Assembly (NCBI GenBank): GCA_048538275.1
Contig: JBLYPW010000001.1
Coordinates: 113,248 to 177,247 of the forward strand
Direction: 5' to 3'
Length of the DNA stretch: 64,000 nt
Source of the DNA: Candidatus Komeilibacteria bacterium
GTDB lineage: Bacteria > Patescibacteriota > Patescibacteriia > UBA1558
The notes beneath the pieces were generated by a model. It was not told where the DNA came from, made no database searches, and saw only the letters and a list, made by a program, of their open reading frames with translations. Shown in pieces: positions 24,801 through 51,460 of this stretch. The position numbers and the translations under genes are program-made. Each line of letters begins with the position of its first letter. Position 1 is the stretch's first letter.

Positions 24801-24939
24801 TTTTCGTTTTGCTTTACTTGCTTAGAACCAAGCAATGCTCGGGAGGATTATTTATATTTTTTTCCAGGCTACTTTGTTTTTTTAGCACTTTTCTTTGATT
24901 TATTCCTGGTCATTATATCAAAGCTTTAGCGCAGGTAAA

Positions 24940-25029: not shown

Positions 25030-25304
25030 CGAATGTATTTTCTACCTTGGCCACTTTTTAGAAATATTTCCCTTTGTCTAGCTTCTGTATAGGTGATGTA
25101 TGTTTCATAGAATAATATTTTCCATGGTCTCTTTGTTTTTGTCGATTTTGTCTTCCCGGCGTTATGAGATTTTAATCTGGTTGCAGGACTGTTTTCCCGA
25201 GATGACCCTATGTAGATATTATTATCATTATTAATTAATGTGTAAGTGCAAGGCATATTTTTGTGAATAGTTTTTCCGCCTGAGGCGGACCCGCCTCTGG
25301 CGGG

Positions 25305-25341
25305 CAAGACTGTCGCATTCGACCACTCTGCCACCTCTCCA
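25305..25341 (-). pseudogene. 5'-half fragment of tRNA-Ser(UGA) (positions 1-35), truncated inside the anticodon
   Basis: A 35/35 match to the 5' part of the 24940-25029 tRNA ends at G35. It is followed on the minus strand by two GC hairpins (cccgcc/ggcggg and tccgcc/ggcgga) instead of the rest of the tRNA. Confidence 0.6.
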
Positions 25342-25520
25342 CGTCCTAGTCACTCTTCGCCGCTACGTCGTAGTCGGGTTTCGCCACTGCGTGCGACAGA
25401 TCAAGTCTGTCTCACTGCGTTTGACTCAACCACGCCTACTCCTTGCTGGTCGCCTGGTCATATGAGGCTCGTTCCTTACCCTTCGTTCTGCTTAGGGTCA
25501 AGCAACTCGCCGGGTTTTTC
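25341..25520. repeat. second copy of the tRNA-leader repeat units (104-nt unit 25349-25452; 44-nt unit 25476-25518)
   Basis: Near-identical to 24553-24656 and 24500-24543. Confidence 0.7.
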
Positions 25521-25609
25521 TTAATTAGTCTAGATTGATTATTTTTCTAGAATGTAAAGCCTTATTAAGGGTATAAAATCTTTAGGCAGTATAATATTTT
25601 TACCCATCA

Positions 25610-26164
25610 TTGTCAATATGTGATAAAGATACTATAATAGTGATAGATAAATATATGGCAAAAGGTGAAAAACAGTATGTAGATGAACAGTATGTGGGGC
25701 AGGAGATTATGTCTTGGGCTGTTCCTGAATACCCGCGATATCAGCGTGATTTGCGCTGGTATGTTATAGCTGTCATTGTGGCTATTTTATTTTTATTATA
25801 CTCCGTGCTGACGGCCAATCTTTTATTTGGTTTGATTATAATTATGGCGGCGGTAACTATTTTCTACTTTGATCGTCATCAAGCGCCCATGGTTGATTTT
25901 GTTATTACCAATCAAGGTTTTAAATTGCATGATAAGTTTTATGAATTTAGTGGAGTTAAATCTTTTTATATAATTTTTGAACCGCCGCATGTACAAAGTT
26001 TGTTTATTGAATTTAATAATAGTTTGCGACCGCGTTTAAATATTCCTTTACAAGACCACGATCCTTCATCTGTGCGTAAAGTATTGAAAGAATATTTAAA
26101 GGAGGACTTGGAAAGAGAAGGCGAGCCTATTAGCGAGGCTTTGGGTAGAATATTTAAGTTATAA
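25610..26164 (+). CDS. hypothetical 2-TM membrane protein
   Basis: Two adjacent hydrophobic helices (VIAVIVAILFLLYSVL and LLFGLIIIMAAVTIF); no motif I recognise. Confidence 0.4.
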   Translation: MSICDKDTIIVIDKYMAKGEKQYVDEQYVGQEIMSWAVPEYPRYQRDLRWYVIAVIVAILFLLYSVLTANLLFGLIIIMAAVTIFYFDRHQAPMVDFVITNQGFKLHDKFYEFSGVKSFYIIFEPPHVQSLFIEFNNSLRPRLNIPLQDHDPSSVRKVLKEYLKEDLEREGEPISEALGRIFKL

Positions 26165-26249
26165 TCCAAATTTTTTAACGAGGTTGACAATTGCACTTTT
26201 TTATTTTACACTTCTCAAAGTTCGGGAAGTTTTTTTAATCAATATTAAT

Positions 26250-26326
26250 GTCCTCATAGCTCAACTGGATAGAGCGTCAGCTTGCGGTGCTGAAGGTTGG
26301 AGGTTCGAGTCCTCCTGAGGACGCCA
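26250..26326 (+). tRNA. tRNA-Arg with anticodon GCG, CCA encoded
   Basis: GTCCTCA acceptor pairing with TGAGGAC; anticodon stem TCAGC/GCTGA with loop TTGCGGT; T-loop TTCGAGT. C35 and G36 are consistent with Arg identity. Confidence 0.8.
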
Positions 26327-33808: not shown

Positions 33809-33883
33809 TCCGCGGTAGCTCAGCGGTAGAGCAGTTGACTGTTAATCAATTGGTCGTCGGTTCGAATCCGACCCGCGGAGCCA
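33809..33883 (+). tRNA. tRNA-Asn (anticodon GUU), CCA encoded
   Basis: TCCGCGG acceptor pairing with CCGCGGA; anticodon stem GTTGA/TCAAT with loop CTGTTAA; T-loop TTCGAAT. Confidence 0.85.
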
Positions 33884-35431
33884 TGTGAGACGAAGCGAGT
33901 TTAATGACTCGTTTTTTCTCTTATCTAAGCCATTTTCATGTAGTTCAAAAGTGGAATTTAGACGAGGCATCCATTTAAGTAAAAATTCAAAAGACGGTGT
34001 GCATTTTGTAGCTAGTTTAAGGTCTTTTAATTCAAAGTTCAAAAATATTTCACTTAAAATTTCTCTTTTCATTTCTGTGCTTGTTTTAGGATTTAAATAA
34101 TCTTTTTTAGCATTGAAAGCCAAATCGTGAATAGCGACAGCTTCTTTGTAAAAGTCTATAGTATTGTCATTTAGTTTTTTAATCTTTTTCTTGATTAATT
34201 TTTCAGTTGCTGAATACTCCTCAAACTTTTTATTATAAAATTCAAGAGTTATGTTTTTGTCTATTTTATCCTCATAAATAGATTCTAGCCTTTGTTCTGT
34301 TTTCTTAAGTTCAATATTATAAGTTTTCATTTGTGTTTCTTTGTATTCTTTTTGATCGGCAAAACTATCTTTTAAGTTTTTTTCAAGCCAATTTAAAACC
34401 CTTTCATTTTGAGGTGAAATCTTATCAAACAAAGGTAGTATCATTTCTTCCAAATCTTCCTGTCTAATATACTTTTTTTGAGAACAAGGTTTATATCTAT
34501 TACAATAGCCATACCAATGGCCTTTTTGTTTTGCCCATGTTATTGTTCCGCCACATTCACCACATTTTATTTTACCTTTAAATACTGGTAGGTGTTTGCT
34601 ATATCGTGGAGCATTAATCTGTCTTGTGATTTTACTTTGCACTTTATCAAACAATTCCTCGGTTATTATAGCCTTTTGTTTGCCTTGATATATTTTATTA
34701 TTCCACCTTAATTTGCCACAATAGAAAGGTTCTAATAAAAAACGGTGCATAGAGCTTTTGCCAACAGCTTTACCATTTCTTGACCTCAGTCCTTTGTCAT
34801 ACATAACTTCACATAGCTTTTTAAGCGAATAATTGCCTGTAGAATAAAGTTTAAACATTATTTTGATATATGGAGCCACTTCGTCATTTATGACGTGTAT
34901 TTTGTGTCCTTTTTCGCCTATGGTTTTGTAGCCAATCGGTGGTTTTGTTGGTAGCCAGCCCTCTTCAATTTTAGCTTTTTGTCCCTTTTTAACTTCTTCA
35001 CTTAAATTGTCTATATAGTTTTTTGCAAATAAAATTCTAATACCCCAATTAAGCTTTTCTTGTGATCTGGAGTCTTTATGCATAATGAGGCTATCTTTAA
35101 CTAGGTGAACTTTTCGCTCGCCGTCTTGTTTGAGCCAACTGTCAACTGCAACCATATCTTTAAAGTTTCTAGTTAAGCGGTCAGCTTTTTCACAAACAAT
35201 AATCTTGAGTTTTTTATCTTTTATATATTTCAACATCTCACCGAATTTATCTCGTTGTTTTTCGCCGCTTGCACTTTCAGATATTTTAAAAATCTTTTCA
35301 ATTACTAATTCTTTTTTATAACAATATTCTTTCAAGTATTTTTCTTGAGCAGGCAAAGAATATCCAGTTTCTTCTTGTTCTTTACTAGATACTCGACAAA
35401 ATATTATACATTTTTGTTTATTGTTTTCCAT
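33842..35431 (-). CDS. large serine recombinase (integrase of the inovirus-like element)
   Basis: N-terminal IIFCRVSSKEQEETGYSLPAQ (catalytic Ser), recombinase domain, CGECGG..C zinc ribbon. The C-terminal SDSNRRPID is encoded antisense to the tRNA-Asn T-arm (the tRNA extends from position 33842 to 33883). Confidence 0.85.
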   Translation of the reverse strand: MENNKQKCIIFCRVSSKEQEETGYSLPAQEKYLKEYCYKKELVIEKIFKISESASGEKQRDKFGEMLKYIKDKKLKIIVCEKADRLTRNFKDMVAVDSWLKQDGERKVHLVKDSLIMHKDSRSQEKLNWGIRILFAKNYIDNLSEEVKKGQKAKIEEGWLPTKPPIGYKTIGEKGHKIHVINDEVAPYIKIMFKLYSTGNYSLKKLCEVMYDKGLRSRNGKAVGKSSMHRFLLEPFYCGKLRWNNKIYQGKQKAIITEELFDKVQSKITRQINAPRYSKHLPVFKGKIKCGECGGTITWAKQKGHWYGYCNRYKPCSQKKYIRQEDLEEMILPLFDKISPQNERVLNWLEKNLKDSFADQKEYKETQMKTYNIELKKTEQRLESIYEDKIDKNITLEFYNKKFEEYSATEKLIKKKIKKLNDNTIDFYKEAVAIHDLAFNAKKDYLNPKTSTEMKREILSEIFLNFELKDLKLATKCTPSFEFLLKWMPRLNSTFELHENGLDKRKNESLNSLRLTWLRGSDSNRRPID

Positions 35432-35753
35432 AGATTTTCTTTAATATAAAAAGGGACGGTCGTAGCAACCCAACAGAATAAAGCAAAAGCTATATTTGTC
35501 AGTACGAACCGCCCCTTAATAGGGACAAATATATAATAAAAGCCTTTGCGTTTAATATTCTTAGTTGAGTTGCATTTATATATTATCATACTCATTTATT
35601 TATGCAAATTGCGTATTCTTAATTCTTTAAGCAAACTAAAGTAATCAACAAGTCCATTAGCTATTTCAGAGGCTTCTTCAAAACTTAAATCATCATCAAA
35701 TTCTTCTTTGACGATTAATTGAAATTCAATTATTGATTCTTTAGATAACATTT

Positions 35754-36530
35754 TTATAGGTGATTAAAGAATATACTTTTATCAAAGACACCAAATCTAA
35801 AAGGTATAAACTCTAAGGAATAAGCTTTGTATTCAACTTCGCCAGTCCATTCAGATTCAAATATCTTTTCAAAGACAGGTTTTACAGTATTTAAAAACTT
35901 CTCTAAAAACCTTATAGCCCAATAGCCCATAAGTTCTATGGCTTTTTTTAATGTTTGTGAGTGAAAGAATTTCTTTTTGCCAAAAGTTCTATCATCAAAC
36001 ATATCTTTACTTAAATACTTACAAACATAAGCTCCAATATTATTTACATTATTAATTTCATTAACCCTAATAAAACCCTGTCCCCAAACAAACTCAAGTT
36101 CAGATATTTCCATAAAAGGTAGCCTGCAGAGCAAATGATAATGAACAGCTCCTCTTTTTTGAAACTCAGGTACAGCTAAATATTCAAAGTCAGGGTATTT
36201 ATACAAAATACGCTTAACAAACTGATTAAATATATAATTAGCTTCTTTTAGTGAGGTAATATTCTTAGCAAAGGTTAAAGTCATGAATTTGTTTAATTGG
36301 GGGTTGGCGTTGGTTAATCGTCTTATCTCTGTTTTTGTTCGATTAAGTGAAAATATTGCTTTTTGTTTCTTTATTTCTAATTGCTTGAAAGCATTTAATT
36401 GTATGGGCTCTTTTTGAGTATTATTATTGTTATCTTTCTTTTTATAGTCTCGCCAGACCGGTTTTTTATACTTAAATACTTCAACTTGTTTGCCAGATAC
36501 CACAATTTTGAGATTGTAGGTATTTGCCAT
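35754..36530 (-). CDS. rolling-circle replication initiator (HUH endonuclease Rep)
   Basis: Motif 1 FMTLTF, motif 2 GAVHYHLL (HuH), motif 3 GAYVCKYLSKD (catalytic Tyr-x-x-Lys). Confidence 0.75.
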   Translation of the reverse strand: MANTYNLKIVVSGKQVEVFKYKKPVWRDYKKKDNNNNTQKEPIQLNAFKQLEIKKQKAIFSLNRTKTEIRRLTNANPQLNKFMTLTFAKNITSLKEANYIFNQFVKRILYKYPDFEYLAVPEFQKRGAVHYHLLCRLPFMEISELEFVWGQGFIRVNEINNVNNIGAYVCKYLSKDMFDDRTFGKKKFFHSQTLKKAIELMGYWAIRFLEKFLNTVKPVFEKIFESEWTGEVEYKAYSLEFIPFRFGVFDKSIFFNHL

Positions 36531-36690
36531 AACTGTTTTTCGTTAGATGTGTGGTTATAATCGAGTTAAGATATTGGCGTTATTTTTATATCATTTTAAG
36601 CAATCTTTTTTGCCGTCGGTGCGGGCATTCCCGCCGGACAAAAAAGCTTGCCCTTAATAAAGTGAATTATTAAAAACATGCTTAAAATAA

Positions 36691-37359
36691 TCATTTGTCT
36701 TTTATTGGTATTAGCCCAGTATTATCATTGGAATATTCTTTATTGTATTGGCGATAATATGGGAATTCGGGATACTTGATAAAATTTACCGCTTCATGAG
36801 TGTTGTAGCAGTTGGCTTTTTGTTTATTAAATAAAAAGAACCGTCTTTTAACTGCTCGTCTACGCAGGTTATCATCTTTTAAATCTTGCAGTTCAAAATA
36901 AGAGACCATAAAAAGCTTATTAAAGAGATTTCTTACTTCGGCAAAGTGTTGCCCTAGATCTCTTATTCTTTTATCTATGTTTGAAGTATGCTGAACACCA
37001 GCCCAAATATCTAAAGGGATGATTTGCCCTTTATCATTTTTTTTAACATCATGCCTATGAGCTGAGAATTTTTGTTTAGCAGACGGTGGCATTTCTTGCC
37101 ATTCCCGAGAGTCAAAATATCCTTGGGCTTCATCAATAAATATTTGTCCGCCTTTTATGTGTAGGAGTTCTGGTATTTCAGACCAAAAGAATACCTTACC
37201 TAGTGTTTCTTTTTTTATCTTTTTCTTTTCTATATATGCTGAAAAATCTAGTTTCCAATTAGCATAAACATCATAGCCTTTTAAAAACATAGAAAGCGCC
37301 TGATAAGTCATATACAGAGTTTTACCAGCCCCGGGTTTGCCTGTAATAATAGTAATCAT
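36691..37359 (-). CDS. Zot-like P-loop NTPase (inovirus pI assembly ATPase-like)
   Basis: N-terminal Walker A MITIITGKPGAGKT; Walker B IFIDEAQ; Zot-family arrangement. Confidence 0.65.
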   Translation of the reverse strand: MITIITGKPGAGKTLYMTYQALSMFLKGYDVYANWKLDFSAYIEKKKIKKETLGKVFFWSEIPELLHIKGGQIFIDEAQGYFDSREWQEMPPSAKQKFSAHRHDVKKNDKGQIIPLDIWAGVQHTSNIDKRIRDLGQHFAEVRNLFNKLFMVSYFELQDLKDDNLRRRAVKRRFFLFNKQKANCYNTHEAVNFIKYPEFPYYRQYNKEYSNDNTGLIPIKDK

Positions 37360-37361
37360 AA

Positions 37362-37604
37362 TTATCTAATTAGAGTGGCTAGCTTCATAATCAGGGTAAT
37401 AATAAGTAGGGTCATTTCAATAATAAAGACAGCTAGTAGTATTTTAAAAAGCGTAACCACAGGAAAGATTAAATCTATCTTGGCAATAGTTGGAGTAATT
37501 ACAGCAAAAGCATTATTAACAGCAGTTAAAATACTGCTATCGGTATTTGCTTCAGGAAGTAGGTTAAATATTTTTATTAAGATTGTTTCTAAAGTATCAA
37601 GCAT
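37362..37604 (-). CDS. small hydrophobic protein (pVI-like minor coat, putative)
   Basis: 80 aa made of two or three TM helices, lying between the pIII-like and Zot-like genes. Confidence 0.35.
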   Translation of the reverse strand: MLDTLETILIKIFNLLPEANTDSSILTAVNNAFAVITPTIAKIDLIFPVVTLFKILLAVFIIEMTLLIITLIMKLATLIR

Positions 37605-37609
37605 ATTAT

Positions 37610-39280
37610 TTATTCATTATCGCTAAATAAATGAGTAATGCGAAAGATTACATACATAGCAAAGATCAGCCATAAGATAGCTACCACATAAGGTCTTATG
37701 GACTGCGTAAAGGAAATAACTCTTTCATCATCAAAGGAGAAAACAGGGACATCAAGATCATACTCGCCATTATCTGAAACAGACTTAAAAGTTATGTTTA
37801 AAGCGTCAGGCGAGGCTTGACCAAAGTCATAATTAAACAAGTTAGTAAAGCCGTCGTAAAAAGCAAAGTAATAGGCAAAAACCACCTTTGTTTTTAAAGT
37901 ATTTACGAGTCTTGGAAAGAAATAGCCGTCGCTTTCACTGTAGATAAAGTCTAAATCTGAGACACGAACAGAAAAGGGATATTGTCTTTTTACAACAGAA
38001 TCATCAAGAAGTTGCACAATATAATGATAACGAGTACTAGAGGCTTCTAAATTAACAGTGTGATTACTTGTATCTGTCATATTAGATAAATTTTCAGTGT
38101 AATAGTTTTCATCAAGTAAGGTTCCGTCATCAAGATATTGCTTAATGTTAAAGGTAAGAAAGGAAAGTCTGTCAGCAGGATAAGTAAAGTTAAAAGTAAC
38201 ATCTGTATTAGTTGTTCCGTTTGGTAAAAGAAGTGCTTGATCAAAGTCTGGGCTGGCAATTTCTATGTCATAACCGGAGTAATAATCCATATTCTGATAC
38301 CAAACTTCACCCTCATCATAAACAAGATCAAAGTCATGAACGCCCACCATATACATTAGGTCATCATAATTTACGCAATCAGTAGATATACTATCTATTT
38401 CACGAGCAATAATAAAATCTTGCCCACGAGCTTTGAATATCTCACCACTAAACTGGTTATCTACACAATCTATGTTATAGACAATACTATCAAAGCCAGT
38501 ACAAGAATTAGTAAGCCCAATCCTATTTACGCCATTAGTAGGACAATAACCCGATACTGTAGTTATGAAGTCAGCCAGTAAATACTCATCTTGCTCGGGA
38601 CTTGCAATGTAAAATGCAGGTAATGACGGATCACTATAAAGCATATAGTATAAATCTAGGAAGCTAGGTTCTGTTCTGGTACCAACTTGTGAAAAGGTAA
38701 ACTTTTCAATAGAACAAGAACCGCTACAACTATAGCCGACTATCTCTGGCGTAGTATTACCACCAATAGCTGAAATAGTGTAATAAGCCCCATAGTCATT
38801 TATTATAAGACCCCAATCACTATCATTTATTCCAGTAAGTAGAGATATTACTTGTGTTTGATCAAAGTAATAGGTTTTACCAATAACAGACAACTCGCCA
38901 CCATTGGCTTCATTAAACTCTATTAAGAATACAGTTGAATTAACATTATCTCGTATAGTCATGCGCCATGCAGACCCTGTGGCAGTTGTTTTAAAGTGTC
39001 CACCTAAATACCAAGTACTAGCATAACTGCTCAGATCTGCTGACGGATCATAACTAGCAGTATATACAGTTGAAGCAGTAGCCCAGTTATGTAAGTATTT
39101 ATCACTGCCATTTTCTACAATCAAGGCGCCATTTGAACTTGTCCAATTATTTTGGTTATTTACATTACCGGTTATATAATCTGCAAAGTCTGTATTAAAT
39201 GGATCGTGAACAGCCTGAGCATTTGGGATAAAGATAAAGAAAGCAAGACAAAGAAATATTGTTAAGTATAGTTTTTTCAT
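37610..39280 (-). CDS. pIII-like adsorption/minor coat protein (signal peptide, large exposed domain, C-terminal membrane anchor)
   Basis: N-terminal signal MKKLYLTIFLCLAFFIFIPNAQA; C-terminal TM VVAILWLIFAMYVIFRI; located directly downstream of the major coat gene. Confidence 0.45.
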   Translation of the reverse strand: MKKLYLTIFLCLAFFIFIPNAQAVHDPFNTDFADYITGNVNNQNNWTSSNGALIVENGSDKYLHNWATASTVYTASYDPSADLSSYASTWYLGGHFKTTATGSAWRMTIRDNVNSTVFLIEFNEANGGELSVIGKTYYFDQTQVISLLTGINDSDWGLIINDYGAYYTISAIGGNTTPEIVGYSCSGSCSIEKFTFSQVGTRTEPSFLDLYYMLYSDPSLPAFYIASPEQDEYLLADFITTVSGYCPTNGVNRIGLTNSCTGFDSIVYNIDCVDNQFSGEIFKARGQDFIIAREIDSISTDCVNYDDLMYMVGVHDFDLVYDEGEVWYQNMDYYSGYDIEIASPDFDQALLLPNGTTNTDVTFNFTYPADRLSFLTFNIKQYLDDGTLLDENYYTENLSNMTDTSNHTVNLEASSTRYHYIVQLLDDSVVKRQYPFSVRVSDLDFIYSESDGYFFPRLVNTLKTKVVFAYYFAFYDGFTNLFNYDFGQASPDALNITFKSVSDNGEYDLDVPVFSFDDERVISFTQSIRPYVVAILWLIFAMYVIFRITHLFSDNE

Positions 39281-39342
39281 TGTAGTTTTTATTTAATGCA
39301 AGTTAAGGGGCTAAAAGAAATAGCCCCTTTTCCTGCAATATG

Positions 39343-39616
39343 CTATCTCATGAAGCGTCGCGTTAAGCGCCACACAAAGCCGATAGAAAAGATGATCACA
39401 CCAACAATAACAATGTTTACGATATTGGCAGTTATTACACCGACAATATTTTCTTTCATTGTATCTACCACACTAGCGGTAGTTGCTGCGACATCTGTAT
39501 CGACTACGGCGAAAGCACTTGAGCCAAGTGCTAGTCCACTGGCAACAGCCAAGGACAAGGCAGTTAGCCTAGCATTGCTTTTTGAGAGAAAGCCTTTAAG
39601 TTTGGTCAACATAGTC
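39343..39616 (-). CDS. inovirus major coat protein (pVIII-like)
   Basis: From the internal Met: signal MLTKLKGFLSKSNARLTALSLAVASGLALGSSAFA, an amphipathic acidic segment, a TM helix IVGVITANIVNIVIVGVIIFSIGFV, and a basic tail WRLTRRFMR. The 39675 start in the ORF track is unlikely. Confidence 0.55.
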
Positions 39617-39622
39617 TCTTTT

Positions 39623-40042
39623 TTAAGAATTAAGTTTTTTAACGAATAACAATAGCACGCCGACCATTGTTCCAATTACCAAACCAAGTACAATCGCTTT
39701 AGCAAAGACAATGGCAATAATTAAGAAATTGTCTAAGTAGCACGAATTGTTTAGTAAGATGTAATCTGAACACATACTATTTGCCCGACATTATTGTTAA
39801 AAAAATGCTCAAGACTATGTAAAGGACAAGAGGGAAAACCAGCCCTAGGCCAATTCCTGAAAATAAATTGTTTACCATTCCGGCCATATTTAGGATTTGA
39901 AAATAATTAAGATTATGATGAGTATTAGCAGTCCGAACAAAACCGCAAATGACACGGTAAGCAGTTGGCTAAAAAAGTTGATTAAATCCAACGCATTATC
40001 TGTCAATGTATAGGTATTATCTAGGGTGGTTATAAAATCCAT
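39623..40042 (-). other. three tandem tiny hydrophobic ORFs (50, 36 and 50 aa) below the ORF-track cutoff; candidate pVII/pIX-like minor coat genes
   Basis: Minus-strand ORFs at 39890-40042 (MDFITTLDNTYT...LILIIILIIFKS), 39777-39887 (MAGMVNNLFSGIGLGLVFPLVLYIVLSIFLTIMSGK) and 39623-39775 (MCSDYILLNNS...LLLFVKKLNS). Each has one TM helix. Confidence 0.3.
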
Positions 40043-40047
40043 TGCTT

Positions 40048-40311
40048 TTACTCTTTATTGGGGATGTAATAATCCGCAAAAGCCCTTTTTCTTTTCTTGT
40101 CCTGAATGTAATAAGGGAATATTTCTACATCAAGGGTAATAAGATCGCCTTGTTTACCGATTTTAAGATTCATATCCCGAATATTTACTTTCACGGGATA
40201 TAGACTATTCTCGGGTTCTATATACACAAGACGACTTTGGCCTTGAGTTCCGTCTTTACGAGTAAAGTCCCTTATTTCCTCTCTTTTAATTTTGCCTGTA
40301 AGTTTAAACAT
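40048..40311 (-). CDS. small basic protein, possible ssDNA-binding protein (gV-like) of the filamentous phage
   Basis: 87 aa, which is the size of gV, and a position at the element edge. No motif proof. Confidence 0.3.
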   Translation of the reverse strand: MFKLTGKIKREEIRDFTRKDGTQGQSRLVYIEPENSLYPVKVNIRDMNLKIGKQGDLITLDVEIFPYYIQDKKRKRAFADYYIPNKE

Positions 40312-40324
40312 AAGTTTTGGCTTT

Positions 40325-40351
40325 TTAATTGATTTAAGTTCGCAATCGACC
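40325..40351 (+). repeat. degenerate tRNA-Asn 3'-end-like sequence; candidate distal att site of the prophage
   Basis: ttaattgatttaagttcgcaatcgacc resembles ttaatcaattggtcgtcggttcgaatccgacc of tRNA-Asn, in the same orientation, just beyond the last phage-like gene. Confidence 0.3.
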
Positions 40352-40428
40352 TTTTAATATTTTGCGATTATGTTTCTAGCTTAAACTAACAAAGTTCTGA
40401 AAAGTTCTGTAAACTTTTTTCAGAATAT

Positions 40429-40453
40429 TAAAAAAGCCCCGTGTTAAGGGGCT
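40429..40453 (-). terminator. rho-independent terminator
   Basis: Stem agcccc/ggggct with loop gtgttaa, followed on the minus strand by a T6 run. Confidence 0.5.
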
Positions 40454-40555
40454 TTAAGGGTATTATTTTTCAGAATTTTATCTTATTTTATTAACATTAA
40501 TTTTTTTTATGTAATTATTTAAATCGAATTTTTTAATTAAAAACATATTTCTATT

Positions 40556-41080
40556 TTAATTGTAGCTGTCAATTATTCCATCAATACCATCAAAATAAAA
40601 ACATGAGGGCGTCTTGTTGCTATAACACGCTTGATATTCATCACCAGACCCATAATTAGATTTATTTAAGGAGTTTGGTTCACCCATAATTTCTTTTAAC
40701 ATATCAAATGTCATTCCAATCCAGATTTTATCTTTTACAATTTTTTCACAGTCATCTTTAAGCCATTCAGTGTTTTTTTGACAAATTTTACCCGCTTCAG
40801 TATTATCATACCATTCCAAACCCTCGGTCGTTTTAAGCCATTTTAAATATTCTGCTTCCTTTTCCTGGCGTTCAACAAATTCATTATAACCACTGACGTT
40901 AAAAAGGACATTGTAAGTACCCCACCCAATTAGTCCAATAATAATTAAAACAACCCAAACGCTTGCAGGCGTTTTTTTCTTCGGTTCTTTTTTTTCTTGC
41001 TTGTTTAAAAATTCTCCGCAATATTTACACTTAATAGCATTATCATTTATTTCTTCAGCGCAATAGGGACATTTTTTCAT
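40556..41080 (-). CDS. zinc-ribbon membrane protein with extracytoplasmic domain, hypothetical
   Basis: N-terminal CPYC...CKYCG, a single TM, and a Cys-containing C-terminal domain. Confidence 0.4.
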   Translation of the reverse strand: MKKCPYCAEEINDNAIKCKYCGEFLNKQEKKEPKKKTPASVWVVLIIIGLIGWGTYNVLFNVSGYNEFVERQEKEAEYLKWLKTTEGLEWYDNTEAGKICQKNTEWLKDDCEKIVKDKIWIGMTFDMLKEIMGEPNSLNKSNYGSGDEYQACYSNKTPSCFYFDGIDGIIDSYN

Positions 41081-41117
41081 ATATTTATTGATTAATATCT
41101 GGGTTTTTATAAAAGTT

Positions 41118-41540
41118 TCAAGCTAGTTTTTTTAGACGCCTCATTATTTTGCCCATATCTTCAATATCAGCTTTGTTTAGTATTGCGCCATCTTCATACA
41201 ATGTATGTATTAATTTGGCTATTAATTCTTCCAGTTCTCCATCTACGTAAAACAATATGTCTCCTAAGTCTTTTTTTATATCAATTTCACTTTCAGCAAA
41301 ATAACGACTTGCCATTATTCCTGAATTTTTAAATAAATCTTCTGGAAACATACCTTCATTTGCCATTATTTTTCCCATGGCTATATATAATTGTTTATAT
41401 ACTCTTCTGAAAATTACTAATTTCGTTTCAAATATTTTTAACTTTTTACTTATATAATATTGAAAAATCATTCCGATGAGCACGCCAACAATAGAGCCAA
41501 TTCCAAGTTGTATAAAAAAGGCAGTAATTGTTTCTAGCAT
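41118..41540 (-). CDS. hypothetical membrane protein
   Basis: 140-aa ORF with an N-terminal TM helix (FIQLGIGSIVGVLIGMIF); no motif I recognise. Confidence 0.35.
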   Translation of the reverse strand: MLETITAFFIQLGIGSIVGVLIGMIFQYYISKKLKIFETKLVIFRRVYKQLYIAMGKIMANEGMFPEDLFKNSGIMASRYFAESEIDIKKDLGDILFYVDGELEELIAKLIHTLYEDGAILNKADIEDMGKIMRRLKKLA

Positions 41541-41595
41541 ATATTTATTGATTAATAAACTTATTTGCTTTAATCATATATAAAAATTGATGTTT

Positions 41596-42402
41596 TTATA
41601 GGTATTTTTTATTTAATTTTATTTTACCCTTTATACCGGTATTATATTTCAGAAAACTTTTTATGTCTATAATTTGTTGTATCTTGGTATTTATCTCATT
41701 ACAAGTATTGTGGTATTTTTTCCAGTTGTTTTTATCTTTGGTATATTCAAGGTCAGCAAATTCATCCTCAGCTATTTCAGCATAATAAAAGTCATCTTTC
41801 AGATTATCTTTATTGGTTATAAAGATATATTTAAGTATTTTATGAGCATTGGTAATTTTATTTTGTTTGCTAATAGGTACTTTTTTACCTTTGATATATA
41901 AAATGCTTTTAATTTCATCAAAATAGGTTTTCTCATCTTTATCGTTTGAAGTAATAAAGACTTTTTGATCAAGCTGGTCAAATACTTCACTATTTACCAC
42001 CTTAAAAGAAAGTTCAAGCATTTGTTTAGAATATGGTTTTGAGAAAAGTTTACGAAGCGAGTCAAATTCTTGCTTTTCTTTAAGACAGCAAGCTTTTACC
42101 TTTTTCATCTTGCCATGGATTATTTCAAGGTTTTTGTAATATATCCAAAACTCACTAGAAAAGAGAGCTTGTCCCTCAACATCTAGGAATTTATCCTCAT
42201 CAAGCAGTTCATCGGGTTTACCTATGAATTTAGCAGTGCTATCAAAAATATCTTGTAAAATATCTTTAATTAAGGGGTCTGAGTTTAAAAAACGAATATA
42301 CTTATACACAATAACAAAACGCTGAAAAATGTTTGTCTCAATCGAAAAAAGACGAGCAAACTCGTTCATCTTTTCTTTGATATTTCGAGCATGATTCATC
42401 AT
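41596..42402 (-). CDS. hypothetical protein (accessory island)
   Basis: 268 aa; no recognisable motifs; very AT-rich. Confidence 0.4.
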   Translation of the reverse strand: MMNHARNIKEKMNEFARLFSIETNIFQRFVIVYKYIRFLNSDPLIKDILQDIFDSTAKFIGKPDELLDEDKFLDVEGQALFSSEFWIYYKNLEIIHGKMKKVKACCLKEKQEFDSLRKLFSKPYSKQMLELSFKVVNSEVFDQLDQKVFITSNDKDEKTYFDEIKSILYIKGKKVPISKQNKITNAHKILKYIFITNKDNLKDDFYYAEIAEDEFADLEYTKDKNNWKKYHNTCNEINTKIQQIIDIKSFLKYNTGIKGKIKLNKKYL

Positions 42403-42634
42403 GATTTTGGCATGGGTCGTTTAGCATATTTCTTATCTATAAGTATAGAGGAAAATGTCTCATCTGAACAATTAGGCTATTAATAAGGAGTTTTTAAAGC
42501 ATAGCCCTTTACGGTGTGAATAAGTATTGTTTTAGCTAATTATATTTTTTGACTTTTTGGCTTATTTAAGGGATAATAAAGAGGATTTTATAATAAATAC
42601 ATTCTAACATTCAACGATAAGTTTCATATAAATT

Positions 42635-44404
42635 ATGGCAAAAAAAGATTATACAAATTGGAATAGAAAAGACTTAATCAAAGAGATTGAGCAGCTTCGC
42701 AAACGCAAAAAATATGGGCTTGTTTGGGAAAACAAACCGGAAAATGTTGTTGAGCAATGTAAAACAGAATTGCCAGTTTTGAAAGAAGTCAAAGACAAAG
42801 AAATAACTACCGACCCTGAAAAGCCAGTGAATTTATTGATTGAGGGCGACAACTATCATGCCCTTTCAGTTTTAAATTACACACACAAAGGTAAAATTGA
42901 TGTGATTTACATTGATCCGCCGTATAATACGGGAAATAAGGATTTCGTTTATAACGATCAATATGTTGATAAAGAAGATGCCTATCGACATAGTAAATGG
43001 ATCTCATTCATGGAAAAAAGACTCTCTCTCGCAAAACCATTACTGAAAACAAATGGAGCAATTTTTGTATCAATTGACGATAATGAGTACCCAAGATTAA
43101 TGATGTTAATGGAAGAAATTTTTGGAGAAAACAAACTAAAAACCGTTTGTGTGAAAATGTCAGAAGCTACTGGTGTTAAAATGGCTAGTGTAATTAAAAA
43201 TGGCAGAATCCCCAAATTAAAAGAATATTTAGTTATAGCAAAAAGAAATGGGATAAAAGATTTATATTTAGAAAAACTACCTAAAGAGCAGTGGGATAGC
43301 GAATATAAAACAATTATCCTAAATACTACAGAGAAAGAAATAAATAAAATCAAAGAAATAAGAGATGACGAGGAAAGAACCGAGGAAGATATTAATTTTT
43401 GTAATAAAAAAATAAGCAGATGGAAAACCTGCTCATTATCTGAATATTTCTCACAAAACAATATCTCAAAAAAAGAGCAGGATGATTTTAAATATAAAAA
43501 TGCGTGGAGAATACTGCAAATTGCCACACTAACAGGTGGTTCTAGAGATAAGGCTGCTGACATTAAAAATAGTTTTTCGAAAGAAGTGCCTGCTTTTTTC
43601 TGTTTAACAACACCACAAAAGAAAATGTATTTGATAAGCGGAACTTTTAATCATGAAACAAAACTTCCCCGATGCAAAGTTTTATTTGCAGATGATTATT
43701 TAACTATACACCCCGGTGATTTTTGGACAGACATAAAAACAACTGGCTTAGATAATGAGGGTGGCGTTGATTTCAGAAATGGTAAAAAGCCAATAAAATT
43801 ATTAGAAAAAGTAGTTAAAACTTACGAAAACAAAAATATTACTGTTTTAGATTTTTTTGCAGGTTCAGGAACATCTGCGGAGGCGGTCTTAAAACTAAAT
43901 AATGAAGATAAAGGAAACAGAAAGTTTATTTTATGTAGTTATAACGAAGAAAATGGAAATGGGAAAATTGTTGATGAATATTGTTATCCAAGAGTAGAAA
44001 AAGCTATCCGTGGCTATAACACCAAAAAAGGTTATGGTGGAAATCTTAAATATTACAAAACTGCTTTTGTTCCAGCCGAACCAACAGACAAAAACAAAAT
44101 TGCAATGACCGAAAAAGCAACGGAAATGCTTTGTGTAAAAGAAGATACTTTTGAAGAAGTAAAATCAACAAAGCAATATAAAATTTTTCGAAATAAGAAA
44201 CGATATACCGGGATTGTTTTCGATCATCAAGCGATAGATAATTTTAAAAAGGAAATTGTAAAAATTGACGGCAAATTCAGTCTTTATATTTTCTCGCTCG
44301 GCGATGATACTTTTGACGAGGAGTTTGAAGATATGAAGAAAAAAGTAAAATTATCACCAATACCGGAAGCGATACTACGAGTTTATCGCAGAATATTTAA
44401 ATAA
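42635..44404 (+). CDS. mod: type III restriction-modification methyltransferase (Mod; beta-class N6-adenine MTase)
   Basis: Motif IV IYIDPPYNTGNKDF lies N-terminal to motif I FFAGSGTSAEA (beta-class order). Confidence 0.8.
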   Translation: MAKKDYTNWNRKDLIKEIEQLRKRKKYGLVWENKPENVVEQCKTELPVLKEVKDKEITTDPEKPVNLLIEGDNYHALSVLNYTHKGKIDVIYIDPPYNTGNKDFVYNDQYVDKEDAYRHSKWISFMEKRLSLAKPLLKTNGAIFVSIDDNEYPRLMMLMEEIFGENKLKTVCVKMSEATGVKMASVIKNGRIPKLKEYLVIAKRNGIKDLYLEKLPKEQWDSEYKTIILNTTEKEINKIKEIRDDEERTEEDINFCNKKISRWKTCSLSEYFSQNNISKKEQDDFKYKNAWRILQIATLTGGSRDKAADIKNSFSKEVPAFFCLTTPQKKMYLISGTFNHETKLPRCKVLFADDYLTIHPGDFWTDIKTTGLDNEGGVDFRNGKKPIKLLEKVVKTYENKNITVLDFFAGSGTSAEAVLKLNNEDKGNRKFILCSYNEENGNGKIVDEYCYPRVEKAIRGYNTKKGYGGNLKYYKTAFVPAEPTDKNKIAMTEKATEMLCVKEDTFEEVKSTKQYKIFRNKKRYTGIVFDHQAIDNFKKEIVKIDGKFSLYIFSLGDDTFDEEFEDMKKKVKLSPIPEAILRVYRRIFK

Positions 44405-44415
44405 TTGGAAAAACT

Positions 44416-46629
44416 ATGCAACTAAAAGATTATCAAACTACGGCTATAAAAAAACTCCTCACCAGAAGCAAGGAATTGCTGGCACAAAGTGGCGAGAAGA
44501 AAGTTATTTTCAAAGCTCCGACTGGATCGGGCAAAACCATAATGACGGCGGAATTTTTGAAGCAACTCATTGACGACAAAGAAATCAAAACCCCCCTTTC
44601 GTTTATTTGGACTGCTCCAAGAAAATTACACACACAAAGCAAGGAAAAGCTGGAAAAGTATTATGAAGATACAAGAGCTTTGGAATGTTCCGACTTTGAA
44701 GATTTGACCGACAAACAAATTGGCGAAAATGAAATTTTGTTTTTGAATTGGGAAAGCATAAACAAAAAAGACAAAAATACAATTGTAAAAGAGAATGAGA
44801 AAGAATTTTACCTCGGCAAGATTGTTGAGAATACAAAGGAAGAAGGACGAGAAATCGTCTTGATTATTGACGAAAGTCATCACCATGCCACAAGCGAAAT
44901 CTCGCAAGATTTAATTTCAGATATCGCCCCACGACTAACGATTGAAGTTTCCGCTACTCCTGTTATTTCAAATCCAGACGAGATTGTTTCTGTGCCTTTA
45001 GAAGATGTAAAACTGGAAGGGATGATAAAAAAATCAGTTGTTCTTAATCCAAATTTTAAAAATGTTTTATCTGGCGACAGCTTAAAAACCAAGCTTGCTG
45101 ACGGAACTGATGCAATGGTGCTTGAAGAAGCACTAAAGAAACGAGAAGAAATCGCAAAAGCATACAAAGAAGCAGGAATTGATATAAACCCGCTTTTACT
45201 TATCCAGCTACCAGACCGAAAAACACAAGCGGAAGATCAAGTCAAAAATGATGTTGTGCGGATTTTGAAAGATAAATACGGAATGACAACGGAAAACGGT
45301 AGACTAGCGATTTACTTATCAGAAGAAAAAGAAAATCTTGAGAATATCGCAAAAAATAATCACGAAACTGAAGTTTTGATTTTTAAGCAAGCAATCGCCT
45401 TAGGTTGGGATTGTCCTCGCGCTCAAGTTTTGGTGCTTTTCAGAGATTGGAAAAGTCTTACATTTTCGGTCCAAACAGTCGGGCGAATTATGCGTATGCC
45501 CGAGCCAGACACAGGTCACTACAAACAAGAAATATTGAATCACGGCTTTGTGTTTACAAATCTTGCTGATATTGAAATCAAGGAAGACATGGCAAGAAGC
45601 TATGTAACGATATATACCAGCCAAAGAATTGAAAGCTACAAGCCAATCAAATTAGAATCTGTTTACCGCTTGCGACAACGAGAAAAGACTCGTTTAAGTC
45701 CGAAATTTATCAATATCTTTTTAGATGAGGCTAAAAAGTACGATCTCGAAAAGAAAATTGAAACCAAAGGACAAAAACTGGAACTGTCTTTAATTTCTGA
45801 TTACGAGGCGGAAGGCGTTGATAAATTGGCAAACGAGGAAATCAAAGGCGAAGCCAAAATCAACACTGAAAACGAAGCTGATTTACAAAAGCTATATGAC
45901 TTTTTTGTAAAGAATAATCTATCGCCTTTTTATCCCGAAGATCGCTCAATCGGCAGACTGAAAGAAGCGATTTATTACTTTTTCAGAATGCGCCTTGGCA
46001 TGGAATACACCGACCGTTTTGCTGAAATCATCAATATTGTATTAAGTCCGAAAAATAGCCAACATTTTATAAATGTTATTGATAGCACCAAAGAAAAATA
46101 TATTGCCGAAACTCAAAAACGAGAAGCAGAACTGCAAAAATCAGCTGACTGGGAATTGCCTGAAATGTTGAACTATGGCGGAAACTTTACGGAGTTTAAA
46201 ACCAAATTATCAGCAATGAAGCCGTTTTATTACGACAACAAATGGAAAACTGAAGAAGCATTTATCAAATTTCTTGAAAAATCAGATCAAATTGAATGGT
46301 GGTTTAAAAACGGCGACCGAGACGCTACATTTTTTGCCGTGCCCTATGTTGAAAATGACGAGCAAAAACCTTTTTATGTTGATTTCATTGTAAAATATAA
46401 AGACGGAAAAATTGCTTTGTTTGATACGAAAAGCGGAAACACAATCAAAGACGCACGAGAAAAAAGCGATGGTTTGCAGGAATATACAAAAAAGAACAAA
46501 AACATTACCGGTGGAATTATGGCAAACACAAATTCCAAAGATTTTTCTGGTCGCTGGATGTGCTACAAGGGACAAGGAAATGAACTTAATCCTGATGACT
46601 TTTCTAATTGGGAATTGTTGGAAGTATAA
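44416..46629 (+). CDS. res: type III restriction enzyme Res subunit (SF2 helicase + PD-(D/E)xK nuclease)
   Basis: Helicase motif I KAPTGSGKT; motif II IIDESHH; C-terminal VDFIVKYKDG...FDTK nuclease motif. Confidence 0.8.
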   Translation: MQLKDYQTTAIKKLLTRSKELLAQSGEKKVIFKAPTGSGKTIMTAEFLKQLIDDKEIKTPLSFIWTAPRKLHTQSKEKLEKYYEDTRALECSDFEDLTDKQIGENEILFLNWESINKKDKNTIVKENEKEFYLGKIVENTKEEGREIVLIIDESHHHATSEISQDLISDIAPRLTIEVSATPVISNPDEIVSVPLEDVKLEGMIKKSVVLNPNFKNVLSGDSLKTKLADGTDAMVLEEALKKREEIAKAYKEAGIDINPLLLIQLPDRKTQAEDQVKNDVVRILKDKYGMTTENGRLAIYLSEEKENLENIAKNNHETEVLIFKQAIALGWDCPRAQVLVLFRDWKSLTFSVQTVGRIMRMPEPDTGHYKQEILNHGFVFTNLADIEIKEDMARSYVTIYTSQRIESYKPIKLESVYRLRQREKTRLSPKFINIFLDEAKKYDLEKKIETKGQKLELSLISDYEAEGVDKLANEEIKGEAKINTENEADLQKLYDFFVKNNLSPFYPEDRSIGRLKEAIYYFFRMRLGMEYTDRFAEIINIVLSPKNSQHFINVIDSTKEKYIAETQKREAELQKSADWELPEMLNYGGNFTEFKTKLSAMKPFYYDNKWKTEEAFIKFLEKSDQIEWWFKNGDRDATFFAVPYVENDEQKPFYVDFIVKYKDGKIALFDTKSGNTIKDAREKSDGLQEYTKKNKNITGGIMANTNSKDFSGRWMCYKGQGNELNPDDFSNWELLEV

Positions 46630-48389
46630 TTATGAGAGTAAAATATCTTACAATTCGGAATTTTCGTGGCATAGACAAATTGGAGAATTTGGAAATTTCT
46701 AATTTGAATACTTTTGTCGGAAAAAATGATGCTGGCAAATCAGCAATCCTTAGAGCTTTAGCGTGTTTTTTTGACGTCAAGAAATTTGATATAAAAGATG
46801 TTTTTAAGGGAAAACAAGATAATGACGTAACTTCCATAGAAATATCTTTTGAACCGTCAGTTGAAATTGATGATCTTGCTTTAGACAGTAGAAAACTGAT
46901 TACGATCAAAAAAGAATTTGTCGTTGTTAATGGTAAAGCAAAATCATCTGAATACTACCTATCTAATGACTACATTGATGAAAAGTATCAAAATCTTTGG
47001 AATAAAAAGGAACAAGATTTAAATCAAATTATTTCTGATCTTGGAGAGGAACCAAACAAATCAGGACGAGGTAAGAAAAATATAATTCGAATAGATCAAA
47101 TTAAAACGGCACTCGCAAGAAATATTAGAACGGACACCTACCATGAACTTGAAGACTTTTTAAAAAACATTGAAAAAACCTACAAAATCAGTTTACCTGA
47201 ATACTCCCTTTTTGACGCCGAGCAAGATTTGAATATTGAAGCGACAAATTTTCAATCTCAATTTAAGCCGATTATTTCAGCATATTTTGAAACTACAAAG
47301 GACAAAACCGCAGAAATTGAGAAGGGTCTTAAACAAGACTTGGCGACTGAATTTGAAGAGATTAGAAAGTATATGACAAAAAATGTTTCTGGGTTGAAAA
47401 AACTTAATCCTACAACGGATTTTGATTGGTCCAAATCGTTAAAAAAGTTTGATTTAAACTTGGAATTTGAGGGTCAAAATTTTGATGTTCCAATTTCTCA
47501 TAAAGGCACCGGCTTTAAAAGATTGTTAATGGTTGCGTATTTTGAATATTTAGCAAACAAGAAAAGCATAAAAAATCAAATTTTCGCCATTGAAGAGCCG
47601 GAAACATATCTTCACCCCTCTGCACAGCAAGACCTTCTAAACTCTATTGTAAGAATTTCTGAAGATTCACAGTTTTTTCTAACAACACATTCACCGGTTT
47701 TTGCTGGAGCAACTGACGGAAAAAATTCAATTTTAGTTATAAAAGATGAACTTGGTATATCTCATTATTCAAGAGAGGAACAAGATATTATAGATCAAAT
47801 TATAAATGAACTGGGAATAAGACCAGACTACAATCTCTTAAAAGAAATTAAGTATTTAATTTTTGTCGAGGGTGTAGACGACATTCACTTTTTAAAAACA
47901 TACGCAAAAACCGTACTAAATAAAGATTTGGAAAATGACAAGATACTTTGTGTTATTGGTGGTGGCGGATCATTAAAAAATTATGCAGACCTTAATTTAT
48001 TTAAAAAACTAAAAGGCAATAATCTTTATTCCGTGATGGTTGATGGGGATGACCAGTCAAACGGAAAAGCTAAATGGTGCGAAAGAATAAAAGCTAAATG
48101 CGATGAAGATACAGCTGATTTTAAGAAATTGAGTAAGAGAGAAATTGAAAATTATTGTCATCCTCAGGCAATATGTAGAAAATGCACAGATTTAGATATT
48201 TCTAAAATTGCCATTCAAGATGACACTGACGTTGCAAAACACCTGAAAGAGATAGGTTTAGTAAAGAATTTTAAAAATGATCTAAATATTGAAGTTTTTA
48301 ATGAAATGACAAAAGAAGAGTGGGAGCAAACAGATTCAAATAATGAAGTTAAAGTTTTTATCGAAGCAATATACACAAAAATATCATGA
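46608..48389 (+). CDS. OLD-family nuclease (N-terminal ABC-type ATPase + C-terminal Toprim)
   Basis: Walker [16 protein letters not shown]; ABC signature/D-loop region [19 protein letters not shown]; Toprim-like [11 protein letters not shown] and MVDGDD. Overlaps res by 22 nt. The start may be the internal MRVKYL (46632). Confidence 0.7.
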
Positions 48390-51456: not shown

Positions 51457-51460
51457 TGCA

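Follow-up and report, generated by a model that had tools for sequence, protein, structure and literature searches.

The closest described counterparts of the element considered here are inoviruses of Candidate Phyla Radiation (CPR) bacteria. The survey of Roux et al. 2019 (PMC6813254) places CPR bacteria among inovirus hosts, includes serine recombinases and DNA methylases among inovirus genes and gives genome sizes of 5–20 kb, and inovirus records in IMG/VR (e.g. IMGVR_UViG_3300025150_000101) share with the locus described below the pI/Zot protein, an HUH Rep, a serine recombinase and coat proteins defined by sequence features. This locus lies in a 64,000-nucleotide stretch of a Candidatus Komeilibacteria chromosome (contig JBLYPW010000001.1, positions 113,248 to 177,247), which is referred to as the window and whose own coordinates are used throughout. 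From 33884 to 49713, the window very probably contains a temperate inovirus-like (Tubulavirales-type) element of 15.83 kb integrated at the 3' end of tRNA-Asn. The element is a further case of the already catalogued CPR inoviruses, and its added interest lies in the architecture of its cargo.

Over the whole virus module, the related locus L001 is 74–98% identical to the window in amino-acid sequence. The IMG/VR records have been cut at gene boundaries and lack the distal att arm, whereas the window presents the full att-bounded unit. None of them has more than a single methylase or restriction gene, or a fragment of one (L003, L010 and L016). A preliminary description of the same DNA had proposed an inovirus-like prophage beside tRNA-Asn that entered by means of a large serine recombinase, and this proposal is supported. 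Its remark that a serine integrase is less common in such phages was overstated given the survey cited above.

The Ff phages (M13, fd and f1, genus Inovirus) have the gene order V - (VII, IX) - VIII - III - VI - I. The window resembles them in gene order, in an 87-aa OB-fold protein that binds single-stranded DNA (ssDNA), in a coat protein with a signal segment, a transmembrane (TM) segment and a basic tail, and in its HUH Rep. It differs in that Rep comes after gene I and not before gene V, in being temperate with a recombinase of its own, and in having 7 kb of defence cargo. In addition, the pI protein has 222 aa and no TM segment, and the gV-like protein is closer to RPA-type OB domains than to the Ff gene V protein (gVp). 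The pIV secretin of the Ff phages has no counterpart and no secretin is encoded, as is also the case for filamentous phages of single-membrane hosts.

Two reports on the Ralstonia RSM/RSS filamentous phages describe a phage-encoded serine recombinase and integration at tRNA genes (PMC3816273, PMC4471427). The window is similar in being an inovirus with its own serine-type recombinase, although the hosts are unrelated. The RSM/RSS enzymes are small resolvase-type recombinases, whereas the recombinase of the window is a 529-aa large type with Recombinase and zinc-ribbon domains. Like the phiC31, Bxb1 and TP901-1 integrases, it has the domain order Resolvase - Recombinase - Zn ribbon, a 6-bp core with non-identical arms and a gene located beside attP. 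Unlike these systems, its target is the extreme 3' end of a tRNA, the attP arm doubles as a terminator and as coding sequence for the tail of the enzyme, and recombinases of the family that are 85% identical use different tRNAs (Asn versus Gln(ctg)). A literature search found no description of the full unit, of integration at tRNA ends through an attP arm that carries a terminator, or of the defence cargo, although a search of texts cannot prove that none exists.

The virus module and its relatives

The virus module is composed of a large serine recombinase, an HUH rolling-circle initiator, a Zot/pI ATPase, pVI-, pIII- and pVIII-like proteins, three tiny membrane open reading frames (ORFs) and an OB-fold ssDNA-binding protein. 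According to the ORF map, all are encoded on the minus strand in a compact array that follows the Ff-like order gV - small TM ORFs - VIII - III - VI - I, and the same order is found in about 100 loci. These genes and their common strand had been listed in the preliminary description, and the profile matches, motifs and hydropathy features given below bear out the list. The size of 6.5 kb that accompanied it does not hold, since the unit spans 15.8 kb and also includes a regulator, further cargo ORFs, restriction-modification (RM) genes, an OLD-like gene and a DUF2130 gene.

The HUH rolling-circle initiator (Rep, 258 aa, 35754–36530) matches PF23343 (Replication-associated protein ORF2/G2P; 1.4e-19, 70.6 bits against a cut-off of 27.8) and phrog_3419 (9e-28), and contains the motifs FMTLTF, HYH and YVCKYLSK. 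It is 32–40% identical to proteins of small rolling-circle plasmids of Bacillota and 37% identical to that of an inovirus-like faecal virus, with weaker matches to Spiroplasma and Ralstonia filamentous phages (30% for Ralstonia). Replication modules are exchanged between plasmid and filamentous-phage groups. The pI/Zot-like morphogenesis ATPase (222 aa, 36691–37359, Walker A GKPGAGKT) matches Pfam Zot PF05707 (4e-9, 36.6 bits, cut-off 20.3), phrog_197 (5e-18) and phrog_1675, protein I of M13 (6e-8). Its matches in the phage collection are exclusively inovirus records annotated as Zot, at 26–30% identity, and one 8.7-kb Eikenella record was found among plasmids. The possibility that Rep and Zot cluster with plasmid rather than inovirus families, raised in the preliminary description, thus does not apply to Zot apart from the Eikenella record and applies in part to Rep, which is equally near to plasmids.

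The structural genes were recognized largely by position and by signal and TM segments called from a simple hydropathy scan. Hydropathy and conserved synteny place a hydrophobic 80-aa protein at the pVI position (37362–37604). The pIII-like protein (556 aa, 37610–39280) carries a signal-like segment at its N-terminus and a TM anchor at its C-terminus, and its N-terminal ~200 residues are the most variable part among relatives. The pVIII-like major coat protein is an 89-aa precursor (39343–39612) with signal-like and TM segments (hydrophobic stretches at residues 18–37 and 54–85) and a charge of +4 in its last 10 residues. Homologues of this precursor in relatives are 53–91% identical. Three TM ORFs of 50, 36 and 50 aa, also seen in relatives, occupy the pVII/pIX-type position (39623–40042). 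Coat proteins were likewise recognized by sequence features in Roux et al. 2019 (PMC6813254). A lack of homologues for the coat-like proteins had been considered a possible objection; homologues are present in about 100 loci.

The 87-aa protein (40048–40311), first noted for its gV-like size, was assigned an OB fold from a profile, an AlphaFold model and a Foldseek search. A profile of 18 family members matched the archaeal RPA OB domain (3e0e, 2k5v) with E = 0.004. The AlphaFold model calculated from 27 homologues was all-beta with a pLDDT of 91.6. The top structures in the PDB were RPA OB domains (probability 1.0 and 0.99), followed by the Ff gene V protein and the Pf3 SSB. Foldseek E-values were all about 0.1, which is common for OB folds of this small size, and the match to the gVp fold was weak (probability ~0.75, TM-score 0.35). 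There was no match in Pfam (Phage_DNA_bind) or PHROG. From the model, the protein is predicted to be a functional analogue of gVp and not a sequence member of the gVp family.

Two small ORFs, also on the minus strand, separate Rep from the recombinase. The first encodes 63 aa (35404–35595), has no assigned role and is kept in relatives as judged by tblastn. The second encodes an acidic protein of 51 aa (35596–35751) that is 88–92% identical where the recombinase is 85–88% identical, and it may be considered a candidate excision factor. From what is known of the family, an excised circle would replicate by the rolling-circle mechanism through the HUH Rep and the 87-aa OB-fold protein would coat the ssDNA. 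The Zot/pI ATPase, together with the pVI-, pIII- and pVIII-like and small coat proteins, would then extrude the ssDNA through the membrane.

Relatives of the module were collected in two ways. The Zot-like protein recovered 17 IMG/VR viral contigs at 75–91% identity in which the whole module is collinear. In 13 of the 17, the gV-like gene is directly preceded by an ORF corresponding to a 268-aa protein of the window. For this protein, more than 160 homologues of ~270 aa were found. One is an NCBI protein from a Candidatus Komeilibacteria metagenome-assembled genome that is 100% identical, which supports the ultra-small-genome host suggested in the preliminary description; others are from Magasanikbacteria. 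A metagenome scan with an alignment of the 268-aa homologues added 80 further loci, and these and the 17 contigs carry the same module at 45–100% amino-acid identity. The tRNAs of the relatives are Asn, Gln(ttg), Gln(ctg), Glu(ctc), Glu(ttc), Trp, Ser(cga) and Ser(tga), and the recombinase ORF always ends inside or beside the tRNA. With the block at different tRNAs in different genomes, the concern that it might be conserved chromosomal sequence does not hold.

Junctions with the host chromosome

The integration target is tRNA-Asn(gtt), found by ARAGORN and Rfam (74.2 bits) at 33809–33883 on the plus strand. The recombinase (529 aa, 33842–35431, minus strand) has its stop codon 42 nt inside the tRNA gene, so its last 42 nt overlap the tRNA; an overlap of the two had been noted in the preliminary description. 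Its Resolvase (PF00239, 1e-19), Recombinase (PF07508, 3e-16) and Zn_ribbon_recom (PF13408, 9e-9) domains each score above the Pfam cut-off, it matches the phrog_95 integrase family (5e-74), and a catalytic-serine motif FCRVSSKEQ is present at residues 11–19. The attL core GAGCCA corresponds to the last 6 nt of the tRNA (33878–33883, plus strand). Next to it, the recombinase-side attP arm supplies a phage-derived terminator hairpin (33892–33915, plus strand) whose opposite strand codes for part of the C-terminal tail of the recombinase. Relatives have an equivalent hairpin at 19 of their junctions.

When the attL junction was used as a query for direct matches, a look-alike was identified at 49704–49743, in which the attR core GAGCCA occupies 49708–49713 (plus strand). 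Comparison of attL and attR sets the length of the element at 15,830 bp. On the minus strand, attL reads ...CTCGCTTCGTCTCACA-TGGCTC-CGCGGG (tRNA) and attR reads ...GCATCGTTTCTCT-TGGCTC-GCATACCGGGACGAC. At greater length these are AACGAGTCATTAAACTCGCTTCGTCTCACA-TGGCTC-CGCGGGTCGG (tRNA) and AAAACGATACTTAAATAGCATCGTTTCTCT-TGGCTC-GCATACCGGGACGACTTTAGAAC, respectively. The sites share the 6-bp core and their flanks are only partly similar.

The position of the right end comes from comparison with relatives. The DUF2130 gene and the adjoining arm (48386–49718) are 86% identical to the far-left end of L125, which is located at tRNA-Gln(ctg), and 79% identical to that of L112, located at tRNA-Gln(ttg). 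In an alignment of four elements at different tRNAs, conservation starts exactly at GGCTCGCATAC and the other side is unrelated except for an A-rich hairpin; the host side of the 49713 junction is not conserved between elements. The distal attP arm thus defined (49670–49713, plus strand; reverse complement GCTCGCATACCGGGACGACTTTAGAAC...) includes a 16-nt motif, GCTCGCATACNGGGAC, that occurs in five related loci besides the window and always at the recombinase-distal end. Because of the shared far-end sequence, the sharp onset of conservation at the junction and the recurrence of the motif in five loci, 49713 is taken as the real right end. Immediately outside, a terminator scan, which also called the hairpin at 33892–33915, identified the displaced native tRNA-Asn terminator in host DNA (49713–49747, plus strand). 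Independent support for an att-bounded unit is provided by L168, where a 25/30 repeat of its own attL is found 7.9 kb upstream of its 268-aa regulator gene.

From these sites, attB would have consisted of the tRNA-Asn 3' end (...GCGGAGCCA, acceptor/T-arm) followed by its own terminator (AGAGAAACGATGC...GTATCGTTTTT), and attP would have the layout recombinase 3' end - hairpin - TGGCTC - GCATACCGGGAC. The putative reconstructed sequences are ...AAACTCGCTTCGTCTCACATGGCTCGCATACCGGGACGACTTTAGAAC... for attP and ...GGTTCGAATCCGACCCGCGGAGCCAAGAGAAACGATGCTATTTAAGTATCGTTTT... for attB. The large serine recombinase would have recombined attP with attB by a crossover in or beside the GAGCCA core. As a result, the recombinase-side attP arm would give the tRNA a replacement terminator and the native terminator would be moved 15.8 kb away. 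By hand translation, the recombinase ends in ...LRLTWL-RGSDSNRRPID in the prophage and would end in ...LRLTWL-AYRDDFRTIFADSS in the predicted excised form. Integration may therefore swap the last 11–14 residues of the recombinase in addition to giving the tRNA a phage-made terminator.

No displaced 3' tRNA fragment that could serve as attR was found in the window, L018, L020 or L024, as would be expected if the crossover took place at the extreme tRNA end. Generic repeat finding between 33000 and 41500 returned chance-level pairs only and no long direct repeats. A search for an inverted-repeat partner of the attL arm found none; the informative match was direct. A crossover in the anticodon loop, an idea derived from L006 and L115, was rejected for the window since its attR is without the tRNA 3' half.

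In L115 (12173–12294) and L006 (8990–9062), only the 3' ~45 nt of a tRNA-Asn-like gene stand beside the recombinase, as far as the anticodon loop, after which the sequence is unrelated. These are either interrupted tRNA genes or cases in which the phage integrated into a tRNA fragment. The window itself contains a tRNA gene interrupted in the anticodon-loop region (63228–63458, plus strand; Rfam tRNA 40.1 bits, gathering threshold 29), which covers model positions 1–71 with 168 nt where the model has 9 and was missed by ARAGORN and by the default Rfam scan. In the host part of the window, tRNA-Ser genes with anticodons gct and tga and a tRNA-Arg gene are found at 24317–26326, and tRNA-Ser gga lies further left at 6182. 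None of these genes has an adjoining element, though phage relatives use tRNA-Ser(tga).

Choice of tRNA seems to change easily in this family. The recombinases of the window and of L123/L125 are 85% identical, yet the former is at Asn and the latter at Gln(ctg); the recombinase-side hairpin arms of these elements differ and the distal arm is the same. L146 (Asn) and L152 (Gln ttg) have a near-identical 60-nt hairpin arm at different tRNAs. Four independent metagenome contigs (L111, L113, L115 and L125) begin ~100–120 nt outside the distal att arm (first 100–135 nt), a shared breakpoint that could arise if occupied sites coexist in the populations with empty or excised ones.

The GC content falls from ~0.40 to ~0.30 on entry into the block and is low across the whole unit. 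Beyond attR, the stretch 49951–52351 (plus strand, GC 0.31–0.32) encodes a DUF4153 protein and a 296-aa ORF (51461–52351). A 65% identical homologue of the latter is found at 2088–2981 of L152, ~6 kb upstream of its LexA gene. This stretch may be what is left of an earlier island that occupied this tRNA. Further to the right, a 133-aa ORF (58773–59174, minus strand, GC ~0.32–0.34) consists solely of a tyrosine-recombinase SAM-like domain of the N-terminal type (PF13495, 7e-14) and looks like a truncated integrase or a Xer remnant.

Upstream hairpin, operator-like repeats and regulator

The preliminary description ended the prophage at 40351, at what it took for a degenerate tRNA-3'-like repeat (40325–40351). 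All genes to the right would then be host chromosome. The core inovirus genes do all fall within 33842–40311, and 40325–40351 loosely resembles a tRNA T-arm (GTTCGCAATCGACC versus GTTCGAATCCGACC). The repeat overlaps a hairpin upstream of the gV-like gene (40340–40367, minus strand), identified by alignment as TCGCAA..AAAGGTCG..TTGCGA and reading TCGCAA - AATATTAAAAGGTCGA - TTGCGA on the minus strand of the window. The AAGGTCG motif of this hairpin is present in all 65 distinct gV-upstream sequences, whatever tRNA is occupied. Its stems occur in several complementary versions: TCGCAA/TTGCGA, CGCAAA/TTTGCG, CTGCC/GGCAG, CACAAA/TTTGTG and TCGTAAA/TTTACGA. Since relatives at Asn, Gln, Glu, Trp and Ser tRNAs all keep the motif, 40325–40351 is not an att site.

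The gene for the 268-aa protein (41596–42402, minus strand) gives a second measure of the extent of the phage. It is carried by 106 related loci. The gV-like gene follows it in 76 of the 77 loci that have at least 1.5 kb of downstream sequence, and Zot follows in each of the 41 that have at least 6.5 kb. The 268-aa gene stays with the module at five tRNA species and so cannot be a host flank gene. A LexA-like gene (LexA_DNA_bind and Peptidase_S24) is found just upstream of it in 53 of 82 relatives, and the idea that both are host flank genes was rejected on the same ground. Phage-linked sequence therefore runs at least to 42402. The arm beside 49713 is also common to elements in different hosts and at different tRNAs. 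With this evidence, a prophage confined to 33809–40351 is highly improbable, and the att-bounded unit to 49713 is retained.

The hairpin is thus a cis element of the phage, possibly the nick site of Rep and thus a replication origin, or a packaging signal. The case for a hairpin is based on the invariant motif and the distinct complementary stem sequences. Stem length was dropped as a statistic after an AT-rich shuffled control gave similar lengths when G-T pairs were permitted.

Between the hairpin and the regulator, alignment and a terminator scan identified a terminator (40455–40433) and operator-like repeats CAGAACTTTTCAGAAC on the minus strand (40390–40455). The repeats upstream of the gV-like gene take the form CAGAAC-TTTT-CAGAAC in the window, and the repeated words differ between phages. 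The model of the 268-aa protein is poor in the N-terminal helical half and confident at residues ~157–268 (pLDDT 82–93). This C-terminal domain is predicted to have an OmpR/PhoB-type winged-helix fold. No match to the protein was found in Pfam, PADLOC or PDB sequences. Proteins of the OmpR/PhoB-type fold usually bind direct repeats. The 268-aa protein would probably serve as a phage regulator that controls the structural operon via the repeats upstream of the gV-like gene.

Cargo and its possible role

About half of the element is cargo, composed of a Type III RM system, an OLD-like nuclease, a DUF2130 protein and two small membrane ORFs. The Mod gene (42635–44404, plus strand; PADLOC MTase_III 1.4e-77, Pfam N6_N4_Mtase 1.5e-30) and the Res gene (44416–46629, plus strand; PADLOC REase_III 1.8e-16, Pfam ResIII 3.4e-21) are 11 nt apart on one strand. 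The next gene encodes a 593-aa putative OLD-family-like ATPase-TOPRIM nuclease (46608–48389, plus strand) that matches PF13175 (AAA_15) at 4.5e-42 and PADLOC AriA and Old at 4.8e-41 and 4.1e-32, respectively. AriA outscores Old, and the OLD-like_TOPRIM match is weak (2e-3, 19.0 bits, below the cut-off of 23.2). Neither a PARIS AriB nor a Gabija GajB partner was seen. The terminal gene beside the distal attP arm encodes the DUF2130 protein (419 aa, 48386–49645, plus strand; PF09903 7.6e-88), which is 90% identical in L125 and 82% identical in L112. DUF2130 is listed in a survey of the PD-(D/E)XK nuclease superfamily (PMC3424549). The cargo would presumably protect the lysogen against other phages.

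The two membrane ORFs, a 174-aa zinc-ribbon protein with a TM segment and a 140-aa TM protein, are encoded between the regulator and the gV-like gene (40556–41540, minus strand; Pfam and hydropathy). They are missing at this position in the close relatives L001, L107 and L108, were not found in any other related locus, and coincide with a blastn gap at 40482–41594 relative to the closest relatives. This is a second, smaller variable slot, occupied by Fic in L024 and by a reverse-transcriptase-like ORF in L003.

The contents of the main slot differ between relatives. The att-bounded cargo of L125 comprises DUF2130, SMODS/AGS_C, a second LexA-like gene and a Type III RM system, and that of L112 comprises DUF2130, a Type I RM system (HsdR, HsdS and HsdM) and AAA_15. 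In the same slot, L018 has an EcoRI-type methylase and a GmrSD-like gene, L020 has NmeDI, Mrr, DpnII and AAA_15, and L003 has a C5 methylase. L020 and L022 have an identical 271-aa regulator with different RM genes beside it. Variable slots between conserved phage genes, holding different anti-phage systems in close relatives, are also a feature of P2/P4-type cargo loci and of the accessory defence modules of Pf phages, such as KKP (PMC11341870). Unlike in these cases, a small filamentous ssDNA phage with a CPR host is the carrier, the cargo is at least as large as the virus module, and the defence function is a prediction.

One alternative is a composite arrangement, in which an inovirus prophage (33884 to ~42600) and a separate defence island (~42600 to 49713) share one tRNA hotspot and only the former would be excised and packaged. 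The cargo between the region upstream of the 268-aa gene and DUF2130 differs completely among close relatives, and L020 and L022 differ in the RM genes beside their identical regulator. Homology to L107 and L109 ends at about 42600, the RM genes are divergent from the phage genes, and some relatives have a second serine recombinase 5–9 kb upstream. Against this arrangement, there is no att-like junction in 42403–42634, and from 42403 to 53000 the window encodes no further recombinase. The only far-end sequence common to relatives lies outside the cargo, beside the displaced tRNA terminator. RM and defence genes also take the same position at Asn, Gln and Trp tRNAs, which is unlikely for independent host islands. 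A composite is for these reasons considered unlikely, and the unit bounded by 33884 and 49713 is preferred.

The second large serine recombinases are located 5–9 kb upstream of the LexA or regulator gene on the same strand, in L024 (3173–4822), L124 (4012–5376), L140 (764–2173), L145 (480–1967) and L182 (11–1156). The L024 copy comes after genes for a DnaG-like primase and a DUF87/TrwB-like ATPase. Such loci suggest that different integrative elements can be arrayed in tandem at a single tRNA.

Several observations weigh against a functional temperate phage with the limits given here. No excised circle, attP junction or empty attB was seen. Among 111 related loci, none has terminal repeats or a recombinase-to-regulator junction and no contig is circular, and the distal attP arm has no match in viral contigs. 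The protein collection holds no close relative of the host. The sites have only the 6-bp core in common, so the junction is founded on comparative conservation and not on a long repeat. Low GC continues past attR to about 52.4 kb, where more and older mobile DNA may lie beyond 49713, and the homologue of the 296-aa ORF beyond attR sits near another family member. The coat-like proteins match no curated family in Pfam or PHROG, the Zot-like protein is short with no TM segment by hydropathy, and the LexA-like gene that most relatives have is absent from the window, where 232 ORF-free nt separate the 268-aa and methyltransferase genes. Packaging of a 7-kb defence cargo in virions would also have to be assumed.

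Searches for an empty site found none. Exact-protein look-ups of two window proteins gave no match. A 237-aa protein of the left flank has no homologue besides itself, the sole other contig being 1 kb. A gene identical to the left-flank gene is present in run SRR32315888. A search of genome contigs with the sigma-70 gene returned unrelated phyla due to its conservation.

Some of these observations could be accounted for by a defective or domesticated remnant, or by an integrative element resembling a rolling-circle plasmid, that forms no virions and is kept for its defence genes. The lack of a free form among the related loci and viral contigs, the missing LexA-like gene, the short Zot-like protein and a Rep as similar to small plasmids of Bacillota as to phages would all be compatible with it. 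However, all ORFs of the module are full length, with alignments to relatives from residue 1 to the end. Conservation is at the protein level, with Zot at 75–91% protein identity versus ~72% DNA identity and many synonymous differences over ~100 loci, as selection on virion genes predicts. A short Zot without a TM segment (218–234 aa) is the norm in this phage family. A remnant is therefore very unlikely, and a temperate inovirus-like element remains the favored description.

The CPR filamentous phages of this family may, tentatively, act as a shuttle for defence systems between ultra-small bacteria, a proposal that is possible and falls somewhat short of probable. The slot between the distal attP arm and the LexA/winged-helix genes would hold a different anti-phage set in each lineage. 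The types found there are Type I, II and III RM systems, OLD/AAA_15 nucleases, SMODS cyclases and the PD-(D/E)XK protein DUF2130. The serine recombinase would excise the whole 12–18 kb unit, which would be packaged in an extensible filament and moved among ultra-small bacteria that otherwise have few routes of gene exchange.

Prophage calls that rely on gene content end prematurely in this family, as in the preliminary description and the trimmed IMG/VR records; the att-bounded unit has more than double the length, and half of it is made up of defence genes. With related recombinases, one shared attP arm and several tRNA targets, the family could serve in the study or engineering of target choice by large serine integrases. 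Links between phages and hosts are scarce for CPR bacteria, and a prophage with both junctions provides an unambiguous link to Komeilibacteria. Packaging of the units, if it occurs, would make small ssDNA phages a vehicle for the spread of restriction systems and nucleases among minimal-genome bacteria.

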